DNA of 64,000 nt from Candidatus Woesebacteria bacterium RIFCSPLOWO2_01_FULL_44_24b (GCA_001793235.1 MGHM01000014.1:3857-67856); one strand, 5' to 3'; positions 221-24,560 are shown, numbered from the stretch's first letter. The notes: generated by a model from the letters alone, not told the origin. Translations and numbers: made by a program.

Positions 221-733
221 ATGGATTACCATTTTTTGCGCCCCAAACGGGTTCGCGAACAACCCGTTAATAGCTCTTATATTTTTAAACTTGTGGGCCG
301 GTTTTTACCAGTATTTTTGCTCGCGGCGATACTGCCTTTTTTGATAGGTTTTGTGGTAGCCCCGCCTGATATTTCTTTTTTAACCCGCGCGGACGCAACT
401 TCCGAGCTTCGTGTGTGGGTGGAACCGGCAAATGTTGTCATGTCTCCGGGCGGAACCACCGAATTCACCGTTCTTGCTCAGTTTGAAGGGGAGGAAAAGT
501 TAATACCCGAGATAACCCTTACATTGACTGCCAGTAGTGGCTTGGTGCTCGAGAACAAGAGTGTTACCTATAAAGTTCCATTCAATGGAAGAGTAGAACT
601 CGGTCGGGTTGGTGTCCGGGCGGAAAGCGCGGGTGAGGCTATGGTTGATATATCCCGGGAAAGCATTAAAATTACAGCCTTTGAATGGCCACTTGAAGTT
701 TCAACTGCACCCGCGAAGGTAATTATAAGATAA
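221..733 (+). CDS. hypothetical membrane-anchored protein, first gene of the pseudopilin cluster
   Basis: 170 aa ORF with one N-terminal hydrophobic helix (LPVFLLAAILPFLIGFVVA). It lies directly upstream of three prepilin-type genes on the same strand. No recognisable catalytic motif. Confidence 0.4.
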   Translation: MDYHFLRPKRVREQPVNSSYIFKLVGRFLPVFLLAAILPFLIGFVVAPPDISFLTRADATSELRVWVEPANVVMSPGGTTEFTVLAQFEGEEKLIPEITLTLTASSGLVLENKSVTYKVPFNGRVELGRVGVRAESAGEAMVDISRESIKITAFEWPLEVSTAPAKVIIR

Positions 734-741
734 CTCGACTC

Positions 742-1194
742 ATGCAATTTTTTCCTGCCCGACACAAAGGATTGACTCTCATAGAGCTTCTTGTTGTGGT
801 TGTAATTATCGGGGTTATGGCAACGCCTCTTCTTTTGACATATCGAAGTCACCGCACAAGTCAAGCACTCCTTAGCTCAGCCGAGACGGTTGCCAACCAT
901 ACTCGCTCGGCGCATGTTTTTGCCCGAGAGGCACGCACTCAGCGCGGATGGGGCGTAAGAAGCACCGGGCAGACTTCTTATTCTATTTTTAGTTTGAGTA
1001 CGGCAGGCACACGCGATGAGCAAAAGTATGTGCTTGATTCAGGGGTGGCTTTTGAGGACGACTTCGAAATTTTATTTGAAATCGGTACAGGCGATACTGC
1101 GCGCGATGCCACCATTGTTTTGGTAAATGCCAATGGCAGAAAGTCAGTTGTGAACGTTGGCCGCTCCGGAGTAGTGGAGGTTATTCATGAGTAA
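742..1194 (+). CDS. type IV pilin-like / pseudopilin (prepilin-type N-terminal cleavage-methylation domain)
   Basis: N-terminus MQFFPARHKG|LTLIELLVVVVIIGV carries the class III signal: G at -1, E at +5 and a hydrophobic helix. Size of 150 aa is typical of minor pilins. Confidence 0.75.
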   Translation: MQFFPARHKGLTLIELLVVVVIIGVMATPLLLTYRSHRTSQALLSSAETVANHTRSAHVFAREARTQRGWGVRSTGQTSYSIFSLSTAGTRDEQKYVLDSGVAFEDDFEILFEIGTGDTARDATIVLVNANGRKSVVNVGRSGVVEVIHE

Positions 1195-1657
1195 AGGATA
1201 TTTTTTGATTGAAGCCTTACTCTCCATTGTTATATTTGCGGTGCTTATACTTTCGGTTTTTTCAATGATAAGCTTCTTGCAAAGGCGTACCATGCGATCC
1301 AGTTTTGAGGCGGAGGCCACGATATTGGTGCAGGATGCAATGGAAATAACCCACACTGTAATTCTTTCTGATTGGGCCGGGTACCCGGACGGCACTTATT
1401 ATCCGGTTTTTAATGCTGATTCTAATTCCTGGATTCTGTTCCCCGGGGAGGAGACAGAGCTTGAAGCCCGCTACAGCCGGAAAGTGGTTTTGCAAAGAGT
1501 GTGCAGGGACTCGCGCGGCGAGCGGATGGATACTTCTCCTTGTCTAGGAGCGCTTGACAACATGAGCCGTGAGGCAGAAGTAACTGTTTCCTGGATGGAG
1601 AGAGACGTAAGCCATGAAATAAGCGCCGAGCTTTTAATACTTAATACAAATGAATAA
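1187..1657 (+). CDS. pseudopilin / minor pilin (prepilin-type N-terminal domain)
   Basis: N-terminus MSKG|YFLIEALLSIVIFAVLIL has G at -1 and E at +5. It overlaps the upstream pilin gene by 8 nt, consistent with an operon. Confidence 0.7.
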   Translation: MSKGYFLIEALLSIVIFAVLILSVFSMISFLQRRTMRSSFEAEATILVQDAMEITHTVILSDWAGYPDGTYYPVFNADSNSWILFPGEETELEARYSRKVVLQRVCRDSRGERMDTSPCLGALDNMSREAEVTVSWMERDVSHEISAELLILNTNE

Positions 1658-2546
1658 GCATAGCTTGCTGTTTTACAGTAAAGCCTTTACTTTGATTGAA
1701 ATACTGGTGGGGCTTGCGCTCTCCGCTGCAATTTTTGTTGTGACAACAAGTCTGGTCGTCAATATCTTTAGTTCAAGCTTAAAAAGCAGGCAGGCAGAGC
1801 TCATGGAGCAGGTAAAAAATGACCTGAGCGCTGAGTTTGGCAATTCTGTGCGTTGGGCGGACTCGGTTTCTTTTGTTGGCGGCCTGCTTCAAATCGATGC
1901 CCTAAGTTACAAGCTTGATGGCGGCAGACTTTACAAGGGAAGTTCAGCGATTACTCCGGAGGAGGTTGAAATTACTAAATTTGAAATTACAAAATATGAA
2001 AGTCAGGGTTCTGCGGAGGGGAGTGGCTCAGGCTTGACCTCACAGTACTTTAATAATGAAGATTTTACAGCGCTCGCCTTTACCCAAAAAGATTTTAATA
2101 TTGATTTTGACTGGGGAGAGGGCTCACCCGACGATTTATTGGATATTGATACCTTTTCGGTCAGGTTTACCGGAGAGGTTTTAGCTCCGCGCGCCGGGGA
2201 TTATGTTTTTTATGTCGACTCTGACGATAGTGCCAGGCTTTGGGTTGACAGCAACCTGATTATTGATGACTGGGCAATACCCGGTTTTTCTGAAGTGTCT
2301 GAGAGGATAAGACTTACCGAAGGCCGCCACGATATCCGCCTTGATTATGTTGAAAATTTTGGTCCTGCTCGGTTGCGTCTAGCATGGAGTTATCCGGGAC
2401 AGGGAAAAGAAGCAATTCCTACTGTTAATCTCTTTCCAAAGTCAGGACCGGTAAGCATTAAAATTGCAGTGGAAATGAGAGTAAAAGTCAGTCAGTCGCA
2501 GGTGGACAGTCTTAGCCTGATATTGTCACCAAGAAGCGGGATATGA
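1650..2546 (+). CDS. pseudopilin with C-terminal PA14-like carbohydrate-binding domain
   Basis: N-terminus KA|FTLIEILVGLALSAAIF is prepilin-like. The C-terminal segment FSVRFTGEVLAPRAGDYVFYVDSDDSARLWVDSNLIIDDW...RLDYVENFGPARLRLAWSYPGQ matches the PA14/GLEYA consensus (G-Y-F, SDDG-like, L-W/IDG, ID-W). Confidence 0.7.
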   Translation: MNKHSLLFYSKAFTLIEILVGLALSAAIFVVTTSLVVNIFSSSLKSRQAELMEQVKNDLSAEFGNSVRWADSVSFVGGLLQIDALSYKLDGGRLYKGSSAITPEEVEITKFEITKYESQGSAEGSGSGLTSQYFNNEDFTALAFTQKDFNIDFDWGEGSPDDLLDIDTFSVRFTGEVLAPRAGDYVFYVDSDDSARLWVDSNLIIDDWAIPGFSEVSERIRLTEGRHDIRLDYVENFGPARLRLAWSYPGQGKEAIPTVNLFPKSGPVSIKIAVEMRVKVSQSQVDSLSLILSPRSGI

Positions 2547-3706
2547 GCAAAAAATTACAAAATGGGGCAATCACAGCGATATTTTTAGCGGTAGTTGCCT
2601 TGGTGCTGACGCTTATTTTGGCAGCAACACAATCTCAACTTCTCTTGTCTATTCGCCGAAGTCAGTCTGCGGCCGACATTTTAATAGCCACATATGGGGC
2701 TGAAAGTGAGGTAAACGATATTATGGCAAAGCTGAGTGGTGGCTACCTTGCCGATGCCGACATTGCCAGGACCACGAAAAACATAGGAGATACAACACTG
2801 ACAATTGAAGGGGAAGACCAGGGAGAAACTCAGATTGTAACGGTTACGGCCTCGCGGGGTTATGCTGTTGGCAAGGTGCAAGGGATTAGGAGAGTGCTTT
2901 CAGTTGAAGAGGTAGACGATGTGGAGTTAGTACTGACTCTGGACTGTACGAGCAGTATGGACGCTCGAGATGCATCCGCAAGCTGTACTGGCAGTAGTTG
3001 CCCCACAAGATTTAATGCACTGGAAGAGGCGGCCATAAATTTTGTGAATAATATTGAGAGGCAGGAAGATGCCGACAAGTTTAAACTGGGCGTTGCAATA
3101 TTTGGCAAGAGTTCGGCATGGCTTCAGTCAAACGGCCGGGACATTACACCGGAGTCGGGTATGAGTTTTAGTGAAATAAGGACGGCCATAGAGGCTGGTA
3201 TCAATACTGTTAGGCGTGGTGGCCAATGTGAAAGAGTGCTGGATGGCACGAGTATCGGCACAGCCTACAGGCATGGTCATAACTACTTGGTTACTACAAA
3301 AAACCCCGACACCAAGCAGATAGAAATTGTTATTACAGATGGCGAGCCGAATTCCAGAACTACTGATAGCGCTTGTCCACCCAGCATTGCCTGCGGCCCG
3401 AATTCCGCGTGTGAGCCAGCTGCAAAGAATTATTTGAGGTGTACCCTGGCGGACAATCTGACTTTTGTTCCGGAAATCAGCCAAAACGGTGCGAGGGACC
3501 CTGAAGTCGATGCCTATGCGGTGACCATTTTTGACAGGCCTCCAACGGACGTGGTTACCATTTTCAGAAATTATGCAACCGAGGATGGTTATTTTAATGC
3601 CAGTCGGGCATCTGAATTGACCAACATTTTGGAGGGAATTTTAGATAAGATATTAGAAGACCGCTCAACCGTGACTATCAAAAGAGTAATACCAACGCTT
3701 GAATAA
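2543..3706 (+). CDS. TadG-like pilus-associated protein with von Willebrand factor A (vWA) domain
   Basis: N-terminal hydrophobic TadE/G-like helix ITAIFLAVVALVLTLILAA. MIDAS motif DCTSS in VELVLTLDCTSSMD. Downstream vWA hallmarks GTSIG and IVITDGEPN. ATGA overlap with the upstream pseudopilin. Confidence 0.65.
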   Translation: MSKKLQNGAITAIFLAVVALVLTLILAATQSQLLLSIRRSQSAADILIATYGAESEVNDIMAKLSGGYLADADIARTTKNIGDTTLTIEGEDQGETQIVTVTASRGYAVGKVQGIRRVLSVEEVDDVELVLTLDCTSSMDARDASASCTGSSCPTRFNALEEAAINFVNNIERQEDADKFKLGVAIFGKSSAWLQSNGRDITPESGMSFSEIRTAIEAGINTVRRGGQCERVLDGTSIGTAYRHGHNYLVTTKNPDTKQIEIVITDGEPNSRTTDSACPPSIACGPNSACEPAAKNYLRCTLADNLTFVPEISQNGARDPEVDAYAVTIFDRPPTDVVTIFRNYATEDGYFNASRASELTNILEGILDKILEDRSTVTIKRVIPTLE

Positions 3707-4577
3707 TATGAATATAAGTTTATCTCTTGCCCATTTGCTGATTCCCAGGCACACCAACAATTATAAGGCTAAAGTTCTTACGACTTCATCGCTTTTGAGT
3801 TTGGCAACTCTTTTTGTACTGGTGCATACAATCCTTGGTATTTTGTCGGCCCCGCGGGTCGCAGTATTGGGTTATGCCTCGAGCATTTCGCCAGATAAAG
3901 TGATCGAGCTTACGAATGTCCAGCGTCTTGAGGCTGGGGTTGGCAAAGTTATTTACAGCCAGGAGCTTGAGAACGCAGCGAGGCTTAAAGCCGAGGACAT
4001 GCTCGCAAAAGACTATTGGGCGCATACAGCTCCGGATGGAACGGAGCCTTGGGATTTTTTTAAGTCGGTTGGCTACGTTTACCGCTTCGCCGGTGAGAAT
4101 CTTGCCCGTGATTTTTCAAATTCTGAGAGTGCAGTTGAGGCTTGGTTGGCCTCACCCTCACATCGCGAGAATATGCTCTCCGGCAAGTATACCGAAATTG
4201 GCGTGGCGGTTATTGAGGGGGACTTAAACGGTAAAGATACTACTTTGATTGTCCAGCTTTTCGGCACGCCAAGAACGGCAGCACCAGCAATCCCCGAGGT
4301 TGCAGCAGAAGTTGGGCTTCCAAGTGTAAATGCTGCCCCGCCGGTACTTGCCCAAAAGTCAGAACCTGCTCCAATAGTTGCGGCCAATAGTTTTGACTTG
4401 ATGAGGGCATTTACGGTCGGCGTGGTTGCGATTCTCCTTGTGGTTTTTGCCACGGATGTCGTGGTCATTAGTAGGCGCGGAATCACGAGGATGGGAGGCA
4501 AAACTCTGGCACATCTATCCTTTATGGTTATGATTTTGGTAATATTATTTATAGTTCGAGCAGGGGAAATTATATGA
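3699..4577 (+). CDS. CAP/SCP (PR-1-like) domain protein with C-terminal transmembrane anchor
   Basis: The central region (QRLEAG...DYWAHTAPDGTEPWDFF...GENLARDF...EAWLASPSHRENMLSGKYTEIGVAV) matches the CAP domain motifs, including the HxxxE-like HREN and the GENL/W signature. The C-terminal helices VGVVAILLVVFATDVVVI and LAHLSFMVMILVILFIV are hydrophobic. Confidence 0.65.
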   Translation: MNNMNISLSLAHLLIPRHTNNYKAKVLTTSSLLSLATLFVLVHTILGILSAPRVAVLGYASSISPDKVIELTNVQRLEAGVGKVIYSQELENAARLKAEDMLAKDYWAHTAPDGTEPWDFFKSVGYVYRFAGENLARDFSNSESAVEAWLASPSHRENMLSGKYTEIGVAVIEGDLNGKDTTLIVQLFGTPRTAAPAIPEVAAEVGLPSVNAAPPVLAQKSEPAPIVAANSFDLMRAFTVGVVAILLVVFATDVVVISRRGITRMGGKTLAHLSFMVMILVILFIVRAGEII

Positions 4578-4837
4578 ATAAAAAACACTTAAAACATCTT
4601 CCACATTTCGTTCCTCTTTTGGGCATATTCGGAGCGGGGATACTGGCGTTTTTGTTGTTTTCTTACGATAAACAATTTCAGATTGGAGTTGCCGTTTCAG
4701 TCGCCGCAGCCCACTTGACCTGGGGCATAGTTCACCATATGGTCCATGGAGACGTGACTCCCGAAATCATTCTGGAATATTTGGCGGTTTCTGTGCTTGG
4801 GCTTGCCGCCATTCTTTCGGTAATTCTTCACACGTAG
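4574..4837 (+). CDS. small two-TM membrane protein with His-rich loop
   Basis: 87 aa with two hydrophobic helices flanking HLTWGIVHHMVHGD. ATGA overlap with the upstream gene. Function unknown. Confidence 0.35.
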   Translation: MNKKHLKHLPHFVPLLGIFGAGILAFLLFSYDKQFQIGVAVSVAAAHLTWGIVHHMVHGDVTPEIILEYLAVSVLGLAAILSVILHT

Positions 4838-4854: not shown

Positions 4855-5364
4855 ATGAAAAACTTAAATAGTAATGGTCATTTCGTGAGTCCTTCGGTGG
4901 GCGCCCTTTCGGTGCCAAGGATGATTAGTGAAATAACCAACTTTGTGAAAAGCGACCCGGGCAGCTACTACAAGCTCGTTATTGGAACGGACTCACAGGT
5001 GCGTCATACCAATGGTCTTGCCGAATGTGATTATGTGACGGCGATAATAATTCATAGGTTGGGCACAGGAGCGAAGTATTTTTGGAAGAAGGAGAAAGTC
5101 AAAATTGCCCCGGTTTTGAGAGATAAAATTTACAAAGAAACTACAATGTCCCTGAATGCAGCTGAGACCCTGGTGCCTGAAATCAGAAAAAGTATCAACG
5201 GAAGTGGTAAATATGAGCTGGAAATTCATATTGATGTGGGTAAGCAGGGCCCAACGCGTGAGATGATAAAAGAAGTTGTTGGTATGGTAACCGGTTCGGG
5301 CTATGTGGCCAAAACTAAACCAGATAGTTGGGGGGCGAGTTCAGTTGCCGACAAGCATACATAA
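4855..5364 (+). CDS. DUF458/YkuK-like (predicted RNase H-like fold) protein
   Basis: The KLVIGTDSQ motif and the ~170 aa size resemble the YkuK/DUF458 family. Assignment is from memory of the family signature, not from a search. Confidence 0.4.
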   Translation: MKNLNSNGHFVSPSVGALSVPRMISEITNFVKSDPGSYYKLVIGTDSQVRHTNGLAECDYVTAIIIHRLGTGAKYFWKKEKVKIAPVLRDKIYKETTMSLNAAETLVPEIRKSINGSGKYELEIHIDVGKQGPTREMIKEVVGMVTGSGYVAKTKPDSWGASSVADKHT

Positions 5365-5366
5365 AA

Positions 5367-6554
5367 ATGTCTGCAGAACAGGGATCATTTATACAAAGCC
5401 AGAAAGCACGGATAGATTCCTTGGTCAGGAGAAGAAAGTATGAGCGATTATTGGCTTTCCGCTTGGAAGAGCAGGATTTCGCTACTTCTATTTATCTGAG
5501 AGTCTTCGATGAAGTTCTTCAAGACCCGGATGTTGATCTAGCTGCCGTCAGAGAAGATATAAATAAATCTTGCAGCAGCTTAGAAGAAACGCGCTTTCTT
5601 AATCAATTTGTATACGACCTAGAGTTAACTCAACAAAAAGTGTTTCTTACCGAAGGACTGATTAAACATACTCTTGAAAGGAATTCATTACAACCGACGG
5701 GGGAGAGAATTGGGAAAGCACTTTTTCTTAGTGGCGTCGGAGCAGATCCGGTTGGAGAGGTAAAAGCGTCTGTTGGAATTGCTTCGTTAAAGATATATAT
5801 CGGAAGTCGCACCGACTACGTGAGGTTATATGGTAAGTTCTCTGTAGGTACTGGTTTCTTCAAGCCATATCAGAAAGTGATGCTACCTCTGGAAGGGACT
5901 CAATATGCTACCAGTATTCCCCTATCAGTTATATTTACAGGGGAAGGAAGGTCAGAGAATCAAATTCGTCAAACTGAAATGCATGAGGAGGCCCATGCAA
6001 TTAATCAAAGGCTTATAGTAACCCGTGCTACACTTTATAGTAAGGAAAGGAAACAATGGCAACTGTACCACGGTGGCAAAATAGAAGATTTAGTCAAGTC
6101 CTTCGACCGTGACCAAGAAATAGCAGAAGCAGGCATACCATTAATTTCAAGCCTTTTTGGTAGGAGGTCTGCGAGGTTAGCAACACTGGTCGAAGCGAGT
6201 TCGTATAAATTTGCCATGTCCCGCGCCCAGGATGAAATTATTGCCATGCAATCTTCGAACGGTTCATATTGGGAGTTTATATTCTCGTATGATCCTTATG
6301 ACTATTACCAAGGGGTGGGTTTAAGGTTGTCTCAATTGGGTTATTCCCATTTAGGTCAATGCGTAGATAAGTCCAGGGACAGATATTTGAAATCTTTAGA
6401 AAGTATTTTTGAGTATGTTGGTTTGGTTCGTTCGCAGATTGCAGAGGATGAGCAAGAGAAATTGACTCAATTACTTCGGGAAATCCCAATCAGCAGATGG
6501 AAAAGGGAATTGAGAAGGAGATATGGAGTATCAGTTATTGATGAGCGTATTTGA
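5367..6554 (+). CDS. hypothetical protein with HExxH (zincin-like) motif
   Basis: The ATG at 5367 follows the upstream stop by 2 nt; the listed ORF start at 5328 is a TTG. It contains EMHEEAHAINQ (HEEAH = HExxH). No other recognisable domain and no TM segment. Confidence 0.45.
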   Translation: MSAEQGSFIQSQKARIDSLVRRRKYERLLAFRLEEQDFATSIYLRVFDEVLQDPDVDLAAVREDINKSCSSLEETRFLNQFVYDLELTQQKVFLTEGLIKHTLERNSLQPTGERIGKALFLSGVGADPVGEVKASVGIASLKIYIGSRTDYVRLYGKFSVGTGFFKPYQKVMLPLEGTQYATSIPLSVIFTGEGRSENQIRQTEMHEEAHAINQRLIVTRATLYSKERKQWQLYHGGKIEDLVKSFDRDQEIAEAGIPLISSLFGRRSARLATLVEASSYKFAMSRAQDEIIAMQSSNGSYWEFIFSYDPYDYYQGVGLRLSQLGYSHLGQCVDKSRDRYLKSLESIFEYVGLVRSQIAEDEQEKLTQLLREIPISRWKRELRRRYGVSVIDERI

Positions 6555-9931: not shown

Positions 9932-11401
9932 TTGTTGCGTGGGGAAAACAATATTATGGGCATATTCAAAAAGTACACCAAGAAGATAACAATACTGGTT
10001 TTGCTGATTGCAATTATTTTAGCCTCACTAGCGGTGAAAGTTGTAAATCTAAATTACAATTCACCTTTTAATGATGAGGCTATTTATGTAGTAGTTGGCA
10101 AATTGGGTGTATTTGAGAAAGACTGGGAAACATTGGTTCCCTTTGAATGGATGGCAGGGGTGCCTTATTTTTATCCAAGTATTTCAGCTTTTGCATATGA
10201 GCTTGGTGGCATAGAAGCATCAAGATTTTTAAATGTAGTGTTTTTTGCGCTCACTGCGTTTCTGGTTTATAAAATTGCTTATTTACTGAGTGAAGGAAAA
10301 GACAAAGTAAAAGAGAAGGCCGGCTGTTTAGCTGCGGCAATTTTTGCCGGCTCTTCGGTAGGCTATTACGTTTCTCGGCTTGCTACTTATGATATGCCAA
10401 GCTTTTTCTTCTTTGCGTTGAGTTTATATTTTTTTATATTAGCTGAGCAAGCACGCAGGCTCCCGGGCAGGAAATATATTCTTTCTGCAATATTTTTAGT
10501 AGTGGCTTTCTTTTTTAAATATATAATCGCACTATATGTACCTATTTTATTGGCTTTTTCCTTTTTCGTCCAGAAAACAAGTTATCGTAAACGGGCAACT
10601 TTAGTGTATTTTGCACTGCCTTTGGTTATGGCGTTTTTTGTTTTTGGTATTACCCAGTTTAAAAGCCTTGGTATATACATTAGTGTACAAACTGAACTCG
10701 AGATAAAATCTCCTCTTGTAGACATGTTAGTTTTTGTAGTTAACCAGATTGGTTTAATATTGCCGTTTTGGGTCGTCGGTAGTTATTGGTTCTATAAAAA
10801 AGAAAAACTTAGAGTCTGGGCATTCTTTACTTTCTTTTCATTTATTATTATTTTGTTCCATGTTCTTAATCAGCGGCTACATACTCTCGATAAACACATA
10901 TTGTTAGCAATTGGAGGATTAGCCGTTTCAGCAGGTATTGGTGTAAGCAATATGATAAAGCACAAGGTTCACGATCGTATTTTATTATTGGGGATTGGTG
11001 TTTTTTGGGTATTATCATTTGTTGTCTCCCTGAAATACAATAGCGCCTGGGTTAATGCGTATTCGGTTATGGATTTCGTTGGGAAAAACAGTCACTCTGA
11101 AGATGTAGTCCTAAGTGAAATTGGCGCGATAACACAGCTGGACCTTTATGAAAAAGTTAATCCACTGAGGGTGTTTACGTTTGATTGGATTTATTACGAT
11201 GAGCACGAAGGCGAGGAAGCGCTTGTGAATGGCGTAAGCGATGGCTATTTCAACACTATTATCCTTGAAACACAAGAGGATGGTAAATCAGATTTTAATT
11301 CTGCTTATCATGAGCTCATAGTTGAAAATCGGGAGTTCAACAGAATTTATTCAAACATATATAGTGACGATCATTTTGAGGTGTATCGGAGGAACTATTA
11401 A
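9932..11401 (+). CDS. polytopic membrane protein, GT-C-type glycosyltransferase-like (PMT/ArnT-like DE loop motif)
   Basis: At least 10 predicted TM helices. The first extracytoplasmic loop carries FNDEAIYV (an Asp-Glu pair as in GT39/GT83 loop 1). There is a large C-terminal soluble region. It is a distant relative of the 47130-56694 paralog family. Confidence 0.5.
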   Translation: MLRGENNIMGIFKKYTKKITILVLLIAIILASLAVKVVNLNYNSPFNDEAIYVVVGKLGVFEKDWETLVPFEWMAGVPYFYPSISAFAYELGGIEASRFLNVVFFALTAFLVYKIAYLLSEGKDKVKEKAGCLAAAIFAGSSVGYYVSRLATYDMPSFFFFALSLYFFILAEQARRLPGRKYILSAIFLVVAFFFKYIIALYVPILLAFSFFVQKTSYRKRATLVYFALPLVMAFFVFGITQFKSLGIYISVQTELEIKSPLVDMLVFVVNQIGLILPFWVVGSYWFYKKEKLRVWAFFTFFSFIIILFHVLNQRLHTLDKHILLAIGGLAVSAGIGVSNMIKHKVHDRILLLGIGVFWVLSFVVSLKYNSAWVNAYSVMDFVGKNSHSEDVVLSEIGAITQLDLYEKVNPLRVFTFDWIYYDEHEGEEALVNGVSDGYFNTIILETQEDGKSDFNSAYHELIVENREFNRIYSNIYSDDHFEVYRRNY

Positions 11402-11402
11402 C

Positions 11403-12245
11403 ATGGCAAGGAAAAAACTAAACAGAGCATACACGAATTTATTGTGGCTGGTGATACCGATGGCTGTCTTTGCGCTGTTTGCAAAATATTTAGTGACCGA
11501 GTCCCCCATAGAAAAATATGAAGATGATACGCTCAGTTTGAAATCCGGCGAACCATCGAAGCCTGTCATCTCTGAGTACAATTGGCATGGCGAAGCTCTC
11601 GTAACTTTTTGGTTTGACGATGGGTGGAGGTCTCAATATTCAGAGGGATTTAGAATCTTAGATAATTATGGTTATAAAGCAGCATTGGCGGTACCAATTG
11701 AACCTATTGGGTATGAGGCTTACATGAACTGGCATCAGATACGAAAGCTGCATTATCTAGGGTGGGAAATAGCTTCGCACAGTAGGTCTCATGATTGTGA
11801 CCTGGTTTATAAAGGGGAGCCTGCATTTGAATATGAAATCTTTGGAGGAAAACAGGATTTGGAGAACTATGGTATTTTGACCGACATTTATGTGGCTCCC
11901 TGTGGAGAGAATACGCCGGAGGCAACTGAATATGTAAAAAGACACTTTTTGTCTCAGAGGATAGTAGAGCCGGGGCTAAACCCTCTGCCAGTTACGGATA
12001 ATTACGGTCTTATGGTTAAACAAGTCAGCAGAGATATTGATATTGAAGAAATAAAAGGTTGGATTAATGAGGCGATAAGTAAAAAACAATGGATAATTTT
12101 GATGTTACATCAAATCGACGACGAAGATACCGAATACGGTACGACCCCGGATAATTTGGAGCAAGTTGTTGATTTTGTCAATCACTCTAATATATCAGTT
12201 GTACTACCTTCCCAGGCACTTGGAGTAGAAAGGCGAAATGAATAA
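11403..12245 (+). CDS. polysaccharide deacetylase (CE4 / NodB-homology domain), membrane-anchored
   Basis: N-terminal TM helix. TFWFDDGW (the TFDDG motif 1 of CE4), a metal-binding His-containing SHSRSHD, and the AALAVPI and YVAPCGE segments. The start is taken at the ATG right after the upstream stop. Confidence 0.7.
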   Translation: MARKKLNRAYTNLLWLVIPMAVFALFAKYLVTESPIEKYEDDTLSLKSGEPSKPVISEYNWHGEALVTFWFDDGWRSQYSEGFRILDNYGYKAALAVPIEPIGYEAYMNWHQIRKLHYLGWEIASHSRSHDCDLVYKGEPAFEYEIFGGKQDLENYGILTDIYVAPCGENTPEATEYVKRHFLSQRIVEPGLNPLPVTDNYGLMVKQVSRDIDIEEIKGWINEAISKKQWIILMLHQIDDEDTEYGTTPDNLEQVVDFVNHSNISVVLPSQALGVERRNE

Positions 12246-13314
12246 AGTAGCAATAATAATGCCGGCACACAATGAAGAGAAAGTGATAAAAATGACCATT
12301 CAATCGGCCATCTCTGCTGTGGGCAAATTGAATGTGTATTTGGTGGACGATGGGTCGAGCGATAAGACAAGTCAGGTTGCACAGAAATTCCTCAAGAATG
12401 TCCTGGTAAAGAAACAAAATGGCGGGAAAGCAAATGCTATAAATTCTGGAATATCTAAGTTTGAGCTGACAAAAAGATATGAATTTATAATGCCGATAGA
12501 TGCAGACACCATATTGGCGGATGACTTTTTCAAGAATATTTTTAATGTTTTTGCTAAGGACAAGAAGAAGAAAATTGCTGCTGTTGTAGGGAAAGTAACG
12601 GGAAGAAATAAGAAATGGATTACTACTTACAGGTTGTGGGAGTATGAGATAAACCAGTCCGTACACAAGGCCGCTCAATCCATGTTGGGGGCTATAACCG
12701 TCTGCCCCGGCCCTTCTACAGTGTATAGATCAAAAGTATTTAAAAGAATTAAGTATTCTGAGGATACCCAAACCGAGGATATGGACTTTACATTCAGAAT
12801 TCACAGGCTTAATCTTGGCCGAATAGTATATGAGCCATCAGCTGTTGTTTCAACTCAAGACCCGGCCACCATCACTGCTTATATCAAGCAGGTCAAGAGG
12901 TGGTACATAGGTTTTTGGCAATGTATTCTTAAACATAAAGTACCCTGGGGCGGGCAAAAATTGGATGCTGAGGCTGGGCTTCTGGCGACCGACGCGCTAC
13001 TGAATGTTCTTTTGGCTGCCTTGTTCGTCGTTTTGGTTCCTGCATCACTTTTTGTAGATCCGATAGTATTGATATCTCCCGCTCTTGCCGACCTTTTTAT
13101 TTTTATGCTGCCTTCAATACTGTACGTTAGCATTAGACGCAAAATTTACGGCCTCATTTTGTTTTTGCCGCTTTTCTATTTTTTGAGGGTTATCGGTAGT
13201 TTTACATTCTTTTACAGTTTCTTAAAAGTTACTCTTGGCCTTAGGGCTAAGATGTCGAACGTTTGGAATACACAAAGGTATAGAGTAATGAAGGAGGAAA
13301 TATGGGTCAGCTAG
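12238..13314 (+). CDS. processive family-2 glycosyltransferase (NodC/IcaA/chitin-synthase-like) with C-terminal TM helices
   Basis: MPAHNEEKVI...VYLVDDGSSDKT (DXD region), QTEDMDFTFRIH, and KQVKRWYIGFWQ (the QxxRW processivity motif). Four C-terminal TM helices. 8 nt overlap with the upstream CE4 gene. Confidence 0.7.
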   Translation: MNKVAIIMPAHNEEKVIKMTIQSAISAVGKLNVYLVDDGSSDKTSQVAQKFLKNVLVKKQNGGKANAINSGISKFELTKRYEFIMPIDADTILADDFFKNIFNVFAKDKKKKIAAVVGKVTGRNKKWITTYRLWEYEINQSVHKAAQSMLGAITVCPGPSTVYRSKVFKRIKYSEDTQTEDMDFTFRIHRLNLGRIVYEPSAVVSTQDPATITAYIKQVKRWYIGFWQCILKHKVPWGGQKLDAEAGLLATDALLNVLLAALFVVLVPASLFVDPIVLISPALADLFIFMLPSILYVSIRRKIYGLILFLPLFYFLRVIGSFTFFYSFLKVTLGLRAKMSNVWNTQRYRVMKEEIWVS

Positions 13315-13393
13315 GAAGCATATCTTTAGTATTTCACTTATTTGTACTTATAGTCGGTAAAGTGTATATTTACCTGAGGTCAAAACTCAGGAG

Positions 13394-14470
13394 ATGAAGT
13401 ACGCATTACCATCATTCTTTCTTTTAACATCATTTTTTACGGTTGTTTTTGTGCTGGTTGCAAATAGTATTAACTTATCACCTTCAAGGGCAGTGGATAA
13501 TATCAAGAAGAGCCTCGCTTACAGTACATCGGATATTGAGTCGGAATACTCCGCTTGGGTGCCTTGGTGGGATGAGCCGGCCTCTATCAATTCTTTGAAG
13601 AACTCAAATAATCAAGTTAAAACGATACTGCCTGTTTGGTATCAGATAAACGAGGCTGGAAAGCTTATTGAGACAGATAGTAAGCTCAAAGAAGAAGTGT
13701 TAAAGGTTGCAAAAGAGCTTAACATTAGTGTTGTCCCTACCATTAGTAATGCCAGTGGTTACGATTTTGACGGTGAAAGAATTTCCAAGTTGCTTGGAAG
13801 CGAAGAACTGCGCGAAGGGTTGGTTGCAAACTTATTGGAACTGGCTCAAAAAAATGCCTTTCGTGGGTGGGATCTTGATTGGGAGCAGGTGAAAAAGGAG
13901 GACAGAGAAGCTTATTCTTCTTTTGTTGATTTATTGGGCAAAAGACTCAATAGTAAAAATTTGAAACTGTCGGTAACTGTGCATGCGCAGGCTGGTAAGG
14001 TTTCGGATTGGGATGGTACAAGCGGCCAAGACCTTAAGGCAATAGGTAATAGTGCGAATTATGTTCGGGTAATGGCCTATGATTTTCATCATTCGAAATC
14101 TTCTCCCGGCTCGGTAACACCGATGGATAGACTTTCCGAAACGCTGGAATACTCGGCAAAAGTAATCCCCTTGGATAAATTGGTATTGGGGCTCCCTTCA
14201 TATGGTTACGATTGGATTGGAGATGAGGGGACAGCAATGCAGTATGAAAAAATAGTTGATTATCTCGGTAAAAATGGAATTCAAAGCCAAAGAGATTCAG
14301 AAACTTATTCATTGTATGCCAATTTTGATTTGGAGGGAGCGGAGCATGCTTTGTGGTATGAGGACGCTGAGAGTTTTCATGAAAAGGTCAAACTTGCCAA
14401 GTCATACGGAGTTTACCAAGTGACGTTATGGCACCTTGGTGGTGAGGATCCTCGCATTTGGGCTTACTGA
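13394..14470 (+). CDS. glycoside hydrolase family 18 (chitinase-like) with N-terminal signal/anchor
   Basis: FRGWDLDWEQ matches the GH18 catalytic DxxDxDxE motif. The N-terminal hydrophobic segment and the ~340 aa TIM-barrel-sized body fit the family. A RBS-like AGGAG lies 5 nt upstream. Confidence 0.65.
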   Translation: MKYALPSFFLLTSFFTVVFVLVANSINLSPSRAVDNIKKSLAYSTSDIESEYSAWVPWWDEPASINSLKNSNNQVKTILPVWYQINEAGKLIETDSKLKEEVLKVAKELNISVVPTISNASGYDFDGERISKLLGSEELREGLVANLLELAQKNAFRGWDLDWEQVKKEDREAYSSFVDLLGKRLNSKNLKLSVTVHAQAGKVSDWDGTSGQDLKAIGNSANYVRVMAYDFHHSKSSPGSVTPMDRLSETLEYSAKVIPLDKLVLGLPSYGYDWIGDEGTAMQYEKIVDYLGKNGIQSQRDSETYSLYANFDLEGAEHALWYEDAESFHEKVKLAKSYGVYQVTLWHLGGEDPRIWAY

Positions 14471-15145
14471 TTAGCTAATTTTTTTGAGCTCTGTCTTTTT
14501 ATTTGCCTTTTCAGCTCGCCATTCAGTGATTTTTTTGTGATCTCCTGTACGTAAGATGTCAGGTACTTTCCAACCTTTGAAGTCTTCCGGTCTGGTGTAA
14601 ACCGGGTAGTCTAGGTTTTCCCCGCTTGAGAAGCTTTCGTTTTCCCTTGCTTCTTCTTCCAAAACGCCCGGCAAGAGCCTGACAACAGCGTCAGTAATAA
14701 CCATCGCCGGAAGCTCACCCCCGGTTAAAACGTAGTTTCCGATTGAAATCTCCTCGTCTACTAAATGTTCATGAATTCGCTCGTCAAATCCCTCATAATG
14801 CCCGGCTAAGAGAATTATATGTTCGAGCTTAGAAAGCTCTCGTGCTTTAGCTTGATCAAAAGTCTTGCCTTGAGGGCTTAGGAGTATGATTTTGGATTTC
14901 TTTTTATTGAAAATTGATAATTGTAAATTGGAAATTGCGCGTTGTACTACATCAACGCGTATTACCATTCCAGGGCCTCCACCATATGGTCTGTCGTCAA
15001 CGGTTTTGTGCTTATCTTCTGCCCAATCACGGAGGTTATGAATATTGATTTCAACAAGAGCCTTGTCCTTTGCTTTTTTAAGCATAGAGGTATCAAAAGG
15101 CCCCTCAAACATGCTCGGGAATAAGCTGACTATATCAATTCTCAT
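14471..15145 (-). CDS. trmD: tRNA (guanine37-N1)-methyltransferase
   Basis: MRIDIVSLFPSMFEGPFDTSMLKKA...DDRPYGGGPGMV carries the canonical TrmD SPOUT signature. Convergent with the GH18 gene, with stop codons abutting. Confidence 0.9.
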   Translation of the reverse strand: MRIDIVSLFPSMFEGPFDTSMLKKAKDKALVEINIHNLRDWAEDKHKTVDDRPYGGGPGMVIRVDVVQRAISNLQLSIFNKKKSKIILLSPQGKTFDQAKARELSKLEHIILLAGHYEGFDERIHEHLVDEEISIGNYVLTGGELPAMVITDAVVRLLPGVLEEEARENESFSSGENLDYPVYTRPEDFKGWKVPDILRTGDHKKITEWRAEKANKKTELKKIS

Positions 15146-15165
15146 ATGTGTAGTATACTAAATTT

Positions 15166-15747
15166 ATGGAATTGACGATTGATGTAAAAGAAATTATGGC
15201 TCGGGTGCGCGAGGTGCTAACTGCCCCCAAAAAGTTTTTTGGCAAGGCAAAAAAAGAACATGGCTGGAAAAAGGCTTTTTCGTTCGTGCTGGTGGTAGCC
15301 GGAGCTGGCCACATTTTGACAGCCCTCTACAATATCCTCATCTACCCCTTAGTATCGCCTACATTCGCAGAATTATTTGGAATACCCGCTGTTCAGTTAA
15401 ATGCCGGACAAGTAGCGGGCGCCACGCTTGTGAGCTTCATCGTGACACTTGGCATGAGTTTTATCTGGGGAGCAGCTCTGAAAGTCTGGCTGGCCATTTT
15501 TAAGGTCAAATCAAATTTCGACTCAAGCTATCGGGTGATGGCATATTCGAGGACTCCGAATTATTTATTTAGCTGGCTTCCGCTTGTCAATATCCTAATA
15601 GCAATATATAGTTTTTATCTTTTGGTGCTGGGACTCGAAAATGAATATGGTATACCCAGAGGAAAAGCTATTCTTATAATTGTTACCTCAGTTGTCGTAA
15701 TTTTTGTAGTCTCAATTCTCGCGGTCTCCTTAATTCCCACAATATAG
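15166..15747 (+). CDS. Yip1-family-like integral membrane protein
   Basis: 193 aa with 5 predicted TM helices and an N-terminal soluble segment. The topology and size resemble the Yip1 domain. Weak assignment. Confidence 0.4.
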   Translation: MELTIDVKEIMARVREVLTAPKKFFGKAKKEHGWKKAFSFVLVVAGAGHILTALYNILIYPLVSPTFAELFGIPAVQLNAGQVAGATLVSFIVTLGMSFIWGAALKVWLAIFKVKSNFDSSYRVMAYSRTPNYLFSWLPLVNILIAIYSFYLLVLGLENEYGIPRGKAILIIVTSVVVIFVVSILAVSLIPTI

Positions 15748-15749
15748 CC

Positions 15750-16925
15750 ATGGATAAAGTAGTAATAGTCATGCCTACATATAAGGAAAAAGATAACATC
15801 GAGCGGATGATTACTGAACTTTTTGAGAAGGAATTCCCAAAAATAAGAAACGTAAGCATGCACCTTTTGGTTGTCAATGATTTGCCCTCGGATGGCGGTC
15901 CTGATGACGGCACGGGGGATATTGTAAAAAAATATGCTAAGAAATTCGACAACCTTCACATTATTGAGGATAAAAAACAAGGTCTTGGTTGGGCTTATGT
16001 TCGCGGCATGAAGTACGCCATGGAGAGGCTCCATGCCGACGCAGTAATGGAGATGGATGCTGACTTTCAGCACCCGCCGCGCTTTGTGGCACCAATGGTC
16101 GCGGCGTATTTGGATGGCGCGGACTATGCAATAGGCTCGCGCTACATTAAAGGCGGCTCCGTTCCCAAAGAGTGGGCGATGCACCGCAAAGCCGTTAGTT
16201 TTTTTGGCAACCTTTTTATTAGAATTGCCTTGGTTAAGCCAAAAATTCATGACTTAACCACCGGTTTCAGACTCACAAGAGTAAAAGGAGTATTAGATAA
16301 AATTAAGCTCAATGAGTTGATGGAGCTTAGCCGTTTTGCCTATAAAGTTGATTTGCTTTATCAAAGCATTAAAAATTCCAAAAAAGTGGTCGAAGTTCCT
16401 CTGGAGTTTGCCCCAAGAACTGAGGAAGTTTCCAAATTTTCAATGCAGGAAATGGTTTCAACTTTCAAAGTTGCGATTATTTTGGGGATTAAGGACAAAC
16501 AAAGATTTATCAAGTACGGCGCTGTCGGCCTTATCGGCTACGCTATCAACGCAGTTGGGCTTGAGGTTTTTTATCGCCTTGGCTTTTCCACCGGCGTTGC
16601 CGCGGCAATTGGAGCCGAGTTTGCAATAGTTTCAAACTTTATTTTGAATAATTTCTGGACTTTTAAAGAGGAAAAAATTACCAGTCTTGCAAAAGTTGTG
16701 AGCAAATTTGTTCAGTTTAATTTGAGCTCGGTGGGCGCAGTGGTTATACAAGCTATAGTGGTGGCGGTGGGAACCGGTATTTTTGGAGTGGGCACCCGCC
16801 AGATAATGCTGATTATCGCTGTGGGCTTTTTCGTAATTCCATACAATTACGCAATGTACAATCTTTTTATATGGAAGACTTGGAAGGTACCCGCACTTGA
16901 GAAAATTCAAAAGTTACTGGGATAG
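15750..16925 (+). CDS. GT2 polyprenyl-phosphate sugar synthase (DPM1/GtrB-like) fused to C-terminal GtrA-like membrane domain
   Basis: N-terminal VVIVMPTYKEKDNIERMI...LLVVNDLPSDG...MEMDADFQHPP (DXD and the DPM1-type DAD...QHP motif). The C-terminal 120 aa carry 4 TM helices with the GtrA-family signature FIKYGAVGLIGYAINAVGLEVF...NNFWTFK. Confidence 0.75.
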   Translation: MDKVVIVMPTYKEKDNIERMITELFEKEFPKIRNVSMHLLVVNDLPSDGGPDDGTGDIVKKYAKKFDNLHIIEDKKQGLGWAYVRGMKYAMERLHADAVMEMDADFQHPPRFVAPMVAAYLDGADYAIGSRYIKGGSVPKEWAMHRKAVSFFGNLFIRIALVKPKIHDLTTGFRLTRVKGVLDKIKLNELMELSRFAYKVDLLYQSIKNSKKVVEVPLEFAPRTEEVSKFSMQEMVSTFKVAIILGIKDKQRFIKYGAVGLIGYAINAVGLEVFYRLGFSTGVAAAIGAEFAIVSNFILNNFWTFKEEKITSLAKVVSKFVQFNLSSVGAVVIQAIVVAVGTGIFGVGTRQIMLIIAVGFFVIPYNYAMYNLFIWKTWKVPALEKIQKLLG

Positions 16926-17175
16926 CATTTTTCTCTGCTTCAACACGAGGGTCTATTTGAGTGTGAACAAATTCCTTTTTTCCACCCAGAAGCTTGTATG
17001 GGAACTCAGCTCCCATTCTGCTTGCTAACGCAGTCCAGAGTTTTTGTTGTTGTTCGTTAAGTTGTGAGTACATACTCAAGGCGTCACTTATGGCGCCCAA
17101 GTCTCTTGGTCCGAGGCCGTTGTTCAGTAATATATGATTGTTTCGCCACCCGCGTACATGTTCTTTCATAATCAA
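16867..17175 (-). CDS. small hypothetical protein (uncertain)
   Basis: 102 aa ORF that mostly occupies the otherwise empty 16926-17212 gap. Its composition is not obviously antisense-like. Its 3' end overlaps the upstream + gene by 59 nt. No motif. Confidence 0.25.
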   Translation of the reverse strand: MIMKEHVRGWRNNHILLNNGLGPRDLGAISDALSMYSQLNEQQQKLWTALASRMGAEFPYKLLGGKKEFVHTQIDPRVEAEKNAIPVTFEFSQVRVPSKSSI

Positions 17176-17212
17176 AGTGTATGTTTAGAAGCCTTCCAAA
17201 TGCTCTCAAGAA

Positions 17213-18103
17213 ATGCAGGATAACTTTGTTTTGCGAGAGCAGCTTGCTAAAATAAAGAGCATGCAAAAATTCTCGGACGCGTGGTTTACTGAGCTTTACC
17301 TCAAATACGGCTCGGTGGAGGAGGCAATCAGAAGCTATCCGGATAGTCTCCCAATTTCTATCGCTAATTACCACAGGCTGGTTAAAAAGTATGGTTTGAT
17401 TAAGTCCGCCGGCCGTCATGTAAGCTTGCCTGAAACTCTTCATTTTTTTCGCGAGAAAGCATTCGAACCCGGAACACCCCTTGAGCGGATTTATGCCCAA
17501 ATGCCGCCAAGCTTCCAAACTTCGCTTTCGACTCTTCATAGAATTTACCAATATATGGAGAAAGCAGTTGTCAGGCGACACGCTGCGGCCTTAATTGCTA
17601 CAGCTGGCAATAGCGGAGAGGTTTTGGTGGGCAGAGAAGTGTTTGGCAACAGTAGATATGGCAAGAAAGTCGGAGATATTTCGCTTCCCATGAGTTTTGC
17701 CAAAAAAGACGAAAGCAATTTTGACTCAGCCCTTCGAGTCCTTCAGCAGGAAGTATTTGCGCATCTTGCCGCTTCTGGGGAGCTCAAGAGAGACTCAACT
17801 TTGGTAAAGCGAATTTTATCCAAAAATATTGAGCCTGTTTTTTATTTTGATATTGTAGATGTTCGCGTCCAAGTTTATGAAATAATATTGCCCACGCAAG
17901 CTTCTGAGTTCTCGAGCTTTAAGCTGGTTGAACACAAGTATGAAAACTTACACACTCTCTCGGTAATGCCAAATTTGCGCACCGGAATCGGCGAAATACT
18001 AAAGCTTTATGGAGACTATTTATATAAGCCTCTCACACTCAAAGTTCCTACATATCATGTATCAAGCATTAACTTGGCGCTTGCTTGGCGAGAGTCAGAG
18101 TAA
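17213..18103 (+). CDS. hypothetical soluble protein
   Basis: 296 aa with protein-like composition. It is the longest ORF in the region; the antisense ORF 17084-17581 is rejected. No recognisable domain. Confidence 0.5.
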   Translation: MQDNFVLREQLAKIKSMQKFSDAWFTELYLKYGSVEEAIRSYPDSLPISIANYHRLVKKYGLIKSAGRHVSLPETLHFFREKAFEPGTPLERIYAQMPPSFQTSLSTLHRIYQYMEKAVVRRHAAALIATAGNSGEVLVGREVFGNSRYGKKVGDISLPMSFAKKDESNFDSALRVLQQEVFAHLAASGELKRDSTLVKRILSKNIEPVFYFDIVDVRVQVYEIILPTQASEFSSFKLVEHKYENLHTLSVMPNLRTGIGEILKLYGDYLYKPLTLKVPTYHVSSINLALAWRESE

Positions 18104-21549: not shown

Positions 21550-22533
21550 ATGACGTACAAGCAGTCTTTGGAAATACTGGATAAAATCAAGGCGGCCAGG
21601 CGGGTTTTGGTTAATTGCCATCAAAGGCCGGACGTGGACTCTATTAGTAGCGCCCTTTCGATGTGTGTGGCACTCAAACAAATGGGCAAGGAAGTCAAGG
21701 TGATTTGCCCGGATGATAAACTCCCTGAACTAAGCTTTCTCTCCTGCTTTAATGAATTTGAGAAAATTGACTATAACACTTTTGATTTTTCCAAGTACGA
21801 TCTGTTTATGGTTCTCGACTCCGCTTCCCCGGAAGTTGTCACCGGGAGCAAAACCATACCCCTGCCGGAAATCGAGACAGTTGTTATTGACCACCATCAT
21901 ACAAGCATTGAGTTTGGAAAGATCAACTTGATAGATGCTGAGCGCTCTGCCACGACTGAGCTTCTTTATCTTCTTTTTGAGGATTGGAACATTGATATCA
22001 CCAAGGAACTTGCAACATCGCTTTTGACCGGAATTCTTGGGGATACTGGTGCATTCGAGTACCACAACACTACTCCAAGAACTCTCCAGATTGCAGCCGA
22101 CTTAATGAGCCTCGGGGCAGATAAAGATGGGATTCTTCTTAAGATATTCAGGAGCAAACAGATGAACCTTCTTAAGTTTTGGGGCAAGGTGCTTGATAAG
22201 CTTGAGGTTGACGCGAGTGGAAAGTTCACCTGGTGCGCAATTCCTTATAGTGTTTATAGTGCGTTGGGGGAGCCGCAAACCGCTCGCGAGTCCGCAAGTT
22301 CACTATTCAGCCGAATGATTGAAGGAACGGAGTTTGGCATTGTCATGCTTGAAGAGTCACCCGGGGAACTCAGGGCGTCATTTCGTGCCAGAAGCACGGG
22401 CTTTGATGTTTCAAAAATTGCGACAGCACTTGGAGGAGGTGGACATGCCGGTGCCGCAGGAGTAACAGTTATAAACGGCAGCTTTGGTGATTCTGTAAAG
22501 AAGGTTGTCGAAACTGCAAGAAGATTTGTATGA
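21550..22533 (+). CDS. DHH/DHHA1 phosphoesterase (NrnA-like nanoRNase / pAp phosphatase)
   Basis: DHH motifs CHQRPDVDSISS and VIDHHHTS, the GDTGAF motif, and the DHHA1 GGGGHAGAAG motif near the C-terminus. About 325 aa. Confidence 0.8.
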   Translation: MTYKQSLEILDKIKAARRVLVNCHQRPDVDSISSALSMCVALKQMGKEVKVICPDDKLPELSFLSCFNEFEKIDYNTFDFSKYDLFMVLDSASPEVVTGSKTIPLPEIETVVIDHHHTSIEFGKINLIDAERSATTELLYLLFEDWNIDITKELATSLLTGILGDTGAFEYHNTTPRTLQIAADLMSLGADKDGILLKIFRSKQMNLLKFWGKVLDKLEVDASGKFTWCAIPYSVYSALGEPQTARESASSLFSRMIEGTEFGIVMLEESPGELRASFRARSTGFDVSKIATALGGGGHAGAAGVTVINGSFGDSVKKVVETARRFV

Positions 22534-23510: not shown

Positions 23511-23527
23511 GCGATATAATTGTTCTA

Positions 23528-24555: not shown

Positions 24556-24560
24556 CTATA

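Follow-up and report, generated by a model that had tools for sequence, protein, structure and literature searches.

Members of the bacterial candidate phyla radiation (CPR) are thought to live fixed to other cells, and of the devices for this attachment type IV pili have the best support. The adhesive subunits of CPR bacteria other than Saccharibacteria are mostly unannotated "hypothetical proteins". Genes for PilB, PilT, PilC, PilM, PilN, PilO and PilD are widespread in these organisms, which have no secretin (PMC6744442, PMC11623550) and no outer membrane (PMC6744442). In the minor-pilin systems most like the locus described here, the so-called HIJK cores (GspHIJK; FimU-PilVWX; ComGD-GG; PpdAB-YgdB-PpdC of Escherichia coli), four consecutive, overlapping prepilin genes lie in one operon; the fourth protein is the largest and carries an extra domain, and a priming or tip role is predicted. 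GspK and PilX, which cap HIJK complexes, are devoid of the glutamate at position +5 of the mature pilin (Glu5, or E5) (PMC7541494, PMC9934059). Modular pilins that join the N_methyl segment to a PA14 or a von Willebrand factor A-type (vWA) module, CPR examples included, were catalogued in 2021 (PMC8179133). Here we describe a candidate operon of this kind (221-4837, + strand) in a 64,000-nucleotide stretch of DNA from Candidatus Woesebacteria bacterium RIFCSPLOWO2_01_FULL_44_24b (MGHM01000014.1:3857-67856), the whole of which is called the window below. The assignment to Ca. Woesebacteria agrees with a preliminary description, made from the sequence alone, which had spoken of a small-genome, possibly episymbiotic bacterium.

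Our reading, to which we give a probability of about 0.72, is that genes 2 to 5 of this operon encode minor pilins of the H, I, J and K types, which would form the adhesive tip and priming complex of a type IV pilus. It is carried by the domain content of the proteins, their signal motifs, the conservation of a metal ion-dependent adhesion site (MIDAS), a predicted fold that combines a pilin with a vWA domain, the synteny of five genes, and the proximity of pilB and pilC in one relative. Since the CPR cell is monoderm-like, a type IV filament here means a type IV pilus.

The seven open reading frames (ORFs) lie head to tail on the + strand, at 221-733, 742-1194, 1187-1657, 1650-2546, 2543-3706, 3699-4577 (with an alternative ATG at 3708) and 4574-4837; all the ORFs of the preliminary description were recovered at their coordinates and on their strand. 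Adjacent ORFs overlap by 4 to 8 nt or are separated by gaps of at most 8 nt, and a GGAGG sequence upstream of the ATG of gene 3 (1187) is located within the 3′ end of gene 2. By its layout, the region 221-4837 is predicted to be a tightly coupled operon. We compared the locus with 11 related loci and built sets of 11 orthologues for each of genes 2 to 4 and of 20 sequences for the vWA family. Genes 1 to 5 are syntenic in all 11 loci, and identical proteins are present on several Rifle-type groundwater assemblies. The comparison suggests a core of five genes to which the PA14 domain, the CAP gene and a response regulator gene are clade-specific extras.

Genes 2, 3 and 4 (742-1194, 1187-1657 and 1650-2546) encode prepilins of 150, 156 and 298 aa. 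Their class III signals read RHKG/LTLIE, SKG/YFLIE and SKA/FTLIE, respectively, with the slash after position -1; the three signals with G/A at -1 and E at +5 noticed earlier are thus present, and they are conserved in the 11 orthologues of each gene. In the alignments of the related loci, all three families keep the -1 Gly and E5 without exception or almost so. Gene 2 is the only one of the genes to pass the threshold of the N_methyl hidden Markov model (HMM; PF07963), with 31.9 bits against a gathering score of 21.2 (E = 8.6e-8), and it also passes TIGR02532 (27.8 against a cutoff of 16.3). Some of the gene 4 orthologues pass the N_methyl or TIGR02532 cutoff as well. We regard the conservation of the -1 Gly and Glu5 among orthologues as stronger evidence than the score of the short N_methyl model. 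When the family profiles were compared with PDB sequences, the N-terminal helix of gene 2 resembled solved type IV pilins at 5e-7, a match confined to the generic helix, and the gene 3 profile yielded nothing significant. Other conserved positions are E15 of gene 2, which is invariant, and G4, E9 and C106 of gene 3, also invariant, with C119 nearly so, giving a conserved Cys106-Cys119 pair.

The families to which these prepilins are most similar occur in a defined order. Among NCBIfam models, the gene 2 family most frequently matches GspH (9 of 11 orthologues) and ComGD (8 of 11). The gene 3 family matches ComGE (11 of 11, at 5.7e-6 for gene 3 itself), PilV (3) and GspI (2), and the gene 4 family, also described as PpdC-like, matches PRK10557 (8 of 11), ComGF (7 of 11) and GspJ (1). 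The locus therefore has the HIJK gene order, i.e., four overlapping pilin genes whose matches run H, I, J, followed by a fourth that is the largest, is E5-less and carries an extra domain. As judged from these matches, the order H, I, J and then a large E5-less subunit appears to be that of the canonical operon. Domain content, signals and HIJK order together support the earlier view of the region as a minor-pilin and tip-adhesin module rather than a major pilin locus.

The J-like pilin encoded by gene 4 contains a PA14 domain (PF07691; 86.8 bits against a gathering score of 24, E = 1.6e-24; 108 bits in the orthologue of locus L011) at aa 127-257, i.e., nt about 2028-2420. The gene 4 orthologues of L012, L013, L020 and L021 are 150-186 aa long and align to residues 1 to ~122 and ~262 to 298, so that both pilin flanks are retained. 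Because these short orthologues omit exactly the PA14 segment, the domain appears to have been grafted into the pilin fold ahead of the last beta-strand(s), much as the alpha-domain of GspK sits inside its pilin fold. The alignments indicate that PA14 is a clade-specific insertion, limited to a subclade. Long Pro/Thr-rich C-terminal tails that end in a conserved P(K/G)PGR are found on the gene 4 orthologues of L011, L016, L017 and L018 and on that of L020 (9409-9969). Several of the PA14-bearing orthologues end in PKPGR, and the window protein has no Pro/Thr-rich tail. The tails may be O-glycosylation sites or cell-wall-spanning linkers; that they bear on glycosylation of the pilins by the glycosyltransferases of the GT-C class described below is a hint only and pure speculation.

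The 387-aa product of gene 5 (2543-3706), the K-like modular pilin, starts with the leader MSKKLQNG/AITAIF, which has Gly at -1 and no Glu5. Throughout the family, a short basic leader and an invariant Gly are followed by A-x-T-x-[IL]-[FY], and Glu occupies position +5 in none of the 20 sequences. An HMM scan of gene 5 gave no N_methyl or TIGR02532 match. In its AlphaFold model (pLDDT 84.9), the vWA fold is clear. An N-terminal helix of 64 residues (aa 2-65) is followed by an antiparallel sheet of four strands (aa 77-119), then by the vWA domain (aa 126-372) and a conserved terminal strand (aa 374-382). In this model, helix and sheet would form the "lollipop" of type IV pilins, making the vWA protein itself a predicted pilin. 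A Foldseek search of the PDB with the model retrieved the sortase-pilus tip adhesins SpaC (1.8e-11), PitA, RrgA and GBS104, and the matches to vWA adhesins, integrin I-domains and PilB ranged from 1e-11 to 1e-7. Streptococcus sanguinis PilB (7B7P/7BA2; about 1e-10 over 363-367 aligned columns) is the closest solved match to span both modules. The proposal first made from the sequence, that pilin-like proteins carry the PA14 and vWA modules, is supported.

Although the VWA Pfam model scores the window protein at 19.9 bits against a gathering score of 23.8, VWA_2 matches 19 of the 20 family members and VWA 17. The residues of the MIDAS motif DxTxS...T...D (D134-C-T136-S-S138, T236 and D266) are invariant in the 20 sequences, as is G8 of the leader. 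Behind the MIDAS Asp comes a Cys-rich segment that varies in length and whose position suggests that ligand specificity may diversify there. Pfam and NCBIfam scans of the 20 members gave VWA families only and no PilX_N or T2SSK match. Neither the C-terminal beta-propeller of PilY1 nor a type I signal peptide was found in gene 5, whose product stops just behind the vWA domain and begins like a prepilin. The family is small: 5.8 billion proteins yielded 44 clusters (90% identity), and there are 8 loci among the GTDB species representatives, which do not include the window's own genome. Those GTDB loci that have informative titles are Woesebacteria or Patescibacteria; L016, L017, L020 and L021 were deposited as "uncultured Gammaproteobacteria", a label that is probably wrong for these four cassette-bearing metagenome-assembled genomes.

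Gene 1 (221-733) is invariant in the cassette, although it was left undescribed in the preliminary description. Each of the 11 related loci has an orthologue, which is always first in the cassette. The 170-aa protein has a single N-terminal transmembrane (TM) helix (about aa 28-46) and an extracytoplasmic beta-sandwich, and has no Pfam or NCBIfam match. With its AlphaFold model (pLDDT 83.4), the best Foldseek matches in the PDB were cohesins (1e-7 to 1e-5, TM-score about 0.45-0.53), and we therefore call the protein cohesin-like. When 1.84 billion representatives were searched in full with an HMM, the result was 157 clusters of 108-220 aa, nearly all of them matched over most of the profile, which defines a compact family. 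It might dock or chaperone the pilin complex at the membrane, a guess in which we have low confidence. A tie to the CPR "Pam" donor-strand-exchange pilus, raised by the beta-sandwich fold, was rejected on context, as the operon context of Pam pili, with ATP synthase and chaperone-usher-like factors, is unlike that of gene 1 (10.64898/2026.03.03.709456).

We infer the following mechanism. After Sec insertion of the prepilins, a prepilin peptidase encoded elsewhere would cut the leaders after the -1 Gly/Ala. The hydrophobic N-terminal helices of the four pilins would pack together, giving a staggered complex that would prime assembly by the PilB/PilC machine and then be carried at the pilus tip. 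The E5-less gene 5 protein would cap the complex and display a Mg2+/Mn2+-dependent vWA domain, whose ligand is probably a protein, and the gene 4 protein would display its PA14 module, whose ligand is probably a glycan. Together, PA14 and vWA would make a bivalent adhesive tip for attachment to host cells or surfaces. Gene 1 would be an obligatory partner, and the CAP gene, gene 7 and, in the relatives, a receiver-only response regulator would be accessory genes.

Several observations weigh against this reading. The N_methyl scores of gene 3 (14.5 bits, E = 0.027) and gene 4 (18.5 bits, E = 0.0015) are below 21.2, slightly so for gene 4, which also just misses TIGR02532 (16.2 against 16.3). 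All the H, I and J family matches fall below curated cutoffs (e.g., GspH 40.3 against 80, ComGE 26.3 against 49), and the matched stretch is mostly the generic N-terminal helix; genes 2 to 4 are therefore not members of those equivalogs. Lectin-type PA14 domains have a Ca2+-binding Asp-Asp motif for carbohydrate binding. This motif reads DSDD in the window protein and DE or NS in the orthologues of L014 and L019, so that it is not kept and lectin activity of PA14 is uncertain. In the window and the 10 kb on either side, Pfam and motif scans revealed no pilB, pilC, pilD, pilM/N/O or major pilin gene, no T2SSE or T2SSF domain, no PilB/PilT Walker motif, and no Peptidase_A24 motif or gene. Nor are assembly genes linked to the cassette in 10 of the 11 related loci.

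Minor-pilin operons in other bacteria are commonly unlinked to the machinery genes. The exception among the relatives is L020, where the only PilB turned up when the window and all loci were scanned for motifs. The genes for this PilB (T2SSE 3e-126, with an MshEN N-domain) and for PilC (T2SSF 2e-52) share the strand of the vWA gene and lie 6.4-9 kb downstream of it. The search for pil and tad genes suggested in the preliminary description hence came out empty around the window and positive for pilB-pilC in this relative. A PilB-seeded scan of metagenomes (48 loci) gave no second linkage to a cassette; the closest contig, L022, ends before the expected position of the cassette. As for the HMM searches that the preliminary description called for, N_methyl (gene 2), PA14 and CAP are above threshold, whereas VWA on the window protein, N_methyl on genes 3 and 4, and TadE are below.

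The lack of linkage in 10 of 11 loci speaks for the possibility that the pilins never become filamentous and form instead an adhesin complex anchored in the membrane, or a "stub" that does not extend, kept at the cell surface by their N-terminal helices and gene 1. The missing E5 of the vWA protein would fit such an arrangement, as would an invariant extra membrane protein without counterpart in described HIJK operons. However, prepilin peptidase processing and packing into filaments have as their hallmarks a -1 Gly and E5 like those conserved in three of the proteins, and the pilB-pilC pair near the cassette in L020, together with the frequent separation of minor-pilin operons from their machinery elsewhere, makes this explanation improbable in our view. 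Equally improbable, we think, is that the minor pilins of the cassette belong to a pseudopilus for competence (Com-type), serving DNA uptake rather than adhesion. Matches to ComGD, ComGE and ComGF are indeed frequent (8, 11 and 7 of 11 orthologues), and competence systems are, like pili, widespread in CPR bacteria (PMC6744442). Yet every score is under the Com equivalog cutoffs, PA14 and vWA/MIDAS are adhesion modules and not DNA-binding ones, comGA/GB/GC, comEA and comEC were not found in the window or the flanking 10 kb, and type IV pilus mutants of the saccharibacterium TM7x have no competence defect (PMC11623550).

Two further explanations seem to us very improbable. One is a Tad/Flp-type pseudopilin set (TadE/F/G), suggested by TadG/CpaL, which join a pilin-like module to a vWA domain whose MIDAS is of the same DxTxS variant, and for which a tip position has been proposed (PMC11870444). 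The Tad model PF13400 gives gene 5 an E value of 0.91 (10.3 bits against 22.3) and matches none of the 20 family members at E ≤ 0.01, the three other proteins have signals of the GFxxxE type and not of the Flp/TadE type, and the window and its 10-kb flanks contain no tad genes. We thus rejected membership of gene 5 in the Tad/TadG family. The earlier label "TadE/G-like" fails by HMM and holds as an analogy, since CpaL/TadG and PilB are pilin-vWA tip proteins. The other is a pseudopilus like that of type II secretion systems (T2SS), secreting or presenting the CAP protein. GspH is the best match of gene 2 and, by gene layout, the CAP gene is co-transcribed in most loci, but CPR bacteria have neither outer membrane nor secretin (PMC6744442), and the CAP protein is TM-anchored at both ends and absent from three loci. 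The adhesive tip and priming complex of a type IV pilus is hence the reading that we retain. A bolder elaboration, which we consider a long shot, would make of the cohesin-like gene 1 and an HIJK set with adhesion domains inserted in J and K a lineage-specific Woesebacteria attachment organelle, either a short non-retractile "stub" or a gene 1-docked tip complex, with CAP, gene 7 and receiver proteins as host-membrane-modifying or signalling accessories and with subunits perhaps glycosylated by the adjacent GT-C battery.

Gene 6 (3699-4577) encodes a CAP/SCP (YkwD-like) membrane protein (CAP, PF00188: 68.7 bits against a gathering score of 21.1, E = 1.1e-18; YkwD: 3e-31, 107.9, below the cutoff of 171), with one N-terminal TM segment (24-42) and two C-terminal ones (239-257 and 270-288). 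The gene is present in 7 of the 11 loci and absent from L012, L020 and L021, i.e., 3 of the 10 loci that extend past the vWA gene; the contig of L018 ends too early. With this distribution, it often accompanies the cassette but is dispensable to it. The preliminary description had counted the CAP protein among the putative adhesins, a claim that we do not uphold, as the protein has TM anchors at both ends, is dispensable in three loci and shows nothing pointing to an adhesin. Gene 7 (4574-4837) encodes an 87-aa His-rich membrane protein with at least two TM segments and no match in Pfam or NCBIfam; it always accompanies the CAP gene (7 loci). The following gene (4855-5364, +) codes for a cytoplasmic RNaseH_like protein (PF04308/DUF458; Pfam 3.6e-48). 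A gene of this family follows the CAP-gene 7 pair in 6 of the 11 loci, and it is probably a conserved downstream neighbour outside the pilus module.

In 7 of the 11 loci, a receiver-only response regulator gene lies between the vWA and CAP genes (L011 11280-11696, L013 3141-3524, and L015-L019). It is 61-74% identical between loci, better kept than the pilins, and is absent from the window and from its closest relative, L014. In L021, a DsbA/Thioredoxin_4 gene (11152-12192) overlaps the stop codon of the vWA gene. It fits with extracytoplasmic Cys-rich proteins and the conserved cysteines of genes 3 and 5, and recalls a CPR-enriched family of thiol-disulfide oxidoreductases tied to pilins in the literature. 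In L020, four secreted proteins without assigned function and then a sortase are encoded between the cassette and PilB. Together with the sortase, three large secreted paralogues (451, 755 and 367 aa), internally repetitive and two of them with a C-terminal TM segment, occupy 11374-17705. They may represent a second, sortase-dependent surface structure; a regular-expression search found no LPXTG motif.

Upstream of gene 1, a Phd/YefM antitoxin gene, whose N-terminal part occupies 1-120 of the window (- strand), is followed in the flanking DNA (L001 8757-9376) by a PIN toxin gene. The pair is uncalled in the 213-kb assembly ANAN16-1 scaffold_55 (L004). As this toxin-antitoxin pair is divergent from the operon, the start of the latter falls within the gap 120-220. 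Within the 100 nt that separate the antitoxin gene from the operon lies a weak sigma-70-like promoter candidate at 184-212 on the + strand (TGGAAA-17-TATATT, 9 of 12 consensus matches); promoter and terminator scans gave nothing above background, and the match is no evidence of function. The 10 kb farther upstream (L001 1-8746) contain genes for Peptidase_C39_2, a YafQ toxin pair, a nitroreductase-like protein, a Glu/Leu/Phe/Val dehydrogenase-like protein, a 510-aa protein without assignment, ThiF and an O-methyltransferase, possibly a peptide-modification cluster like those for ribosomally synthesized and post-translationally modified peptides. A histidine kinase gene adjoins this run.

Downstream, a 408-aa ORF (5328-6554) between the RNaseH_like gene and rmlA has no family match and no counterpart in the 11 related loci. 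Beyond it, the very large glycosylation locus reported earlier was found again, extending from 6577 to the end of the window at 64000 and through the next 10 kb (L007-L010). It comprises rmlABCD, many GT2/GT4 genes, two Polysacc_synt flippases and about 13 GT-C-like membrane glycosyltransferases (PMT_2/PMT/YfhO/PTPS_related), and goes on past the window end with a radical SAM/B12 enzyme and methyltransferases. The neighbourhood is partly kept in relatives, with rmlABCD after the cassette in L013. Within the island, neighbouring genes for a polysaccharide deacetylase, a chitin-synthase-like GT2 enzyme and a GH18 chitinase-like protein (11403-14470) suggest that a chitin-like polymer is made and remodelled. 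At 21550-25553 there are three paralogous genes for DHH/DHHA1 phosphoesterases, with two small unassigned ORFs between them.

This analysis proposes a role, concrete and testable, for seven woesebacterial genes so far classed as hypothetical. Two modules are candidates for receptor binding, PA14 with a glycan and vWA/MIDAS with a protein as ligand, and offer a lead to the identity of the host or substrate. The analysis also points to domain insertion into J- and K-type minor pilins as the way in which this lineage may diversify its tip. The general picture is unchanged, as modular PA14 and vWA pilins and the vWA tip proteins PilB, CpaL/TadG and PilY1 have been described already.

Among these known systems, the S. 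sanguinis PilB/PilC/PilA set resembles the Woesebacteria cassette in combining in one operon a vWA pilin with a functional-type MIDAS (PilB) and a lectin pilin (PilC), for which an adhesive tip has been proposed (PMC8179133, PMC9934059). However, PilB is only 12-13% identical to gene 5 and has a canonical signal, whereas gene 5 is E5-less; the ConA-like lectin is appended and PA14 is inserted, and there are three pilins instead of four. CpaL/TadG, the predicted first, tip subunit, shares the pilin-like module joined to a vWA domain with the DxTxS...T...D MIDAS, and similarly has no residue to pair with a subunit above (PMC11870444). It differs in that the Woesebacteria locus has neither the Tad/Flp signal class nor PF13400, its partner pilins are of the GFxxxE type, and the vWA domain of CpaL is split by extra beta-domains. 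PilY1 of Pseudomonas aeruginosa and Myxococcus xanthus likewise places a vWA domain atop four minor pilins at the tip, where it primes extension and serves in adhesion or surface sensing (PMC7541494). Nevertheless, it is not a pilin, has a Sec signal and carries a beta-propeller at its C terminus, in contrast to the Woesebacteria vWA domain, which is fused to a K-like pilin without any PilY1 domain. A parallel within the CPR is PilX1/PilX2 of Saccharibacteria TM7x, the largest minor pilins, with lectin-like domains and non-canonical signals, which have been proposed as host-binding tip adhesins (PMC11623550). Compared by fold, they carry jelly-roll and beta-propeller domains instead of PA14 and vWA, and the TM7x loci include machinery and major pilin genes. 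Relative to the HIJK cores, lastly, the Woesebacteria set has no member at a curated cutoff and no separate PilY1, and belongs to a monoderm-like organism. Its K subunit has a vWA domain in place of the alpha-domain of GspK, its J subunit an inserted PA14, and a membrane-anchored cohesin-like gene precedes the four pilin genes. The K-type cap fused to vWA, the J-type pilin with inserted PA14 and the invariant cohesin-like partner are what is particular to the Woesebacteria locus.

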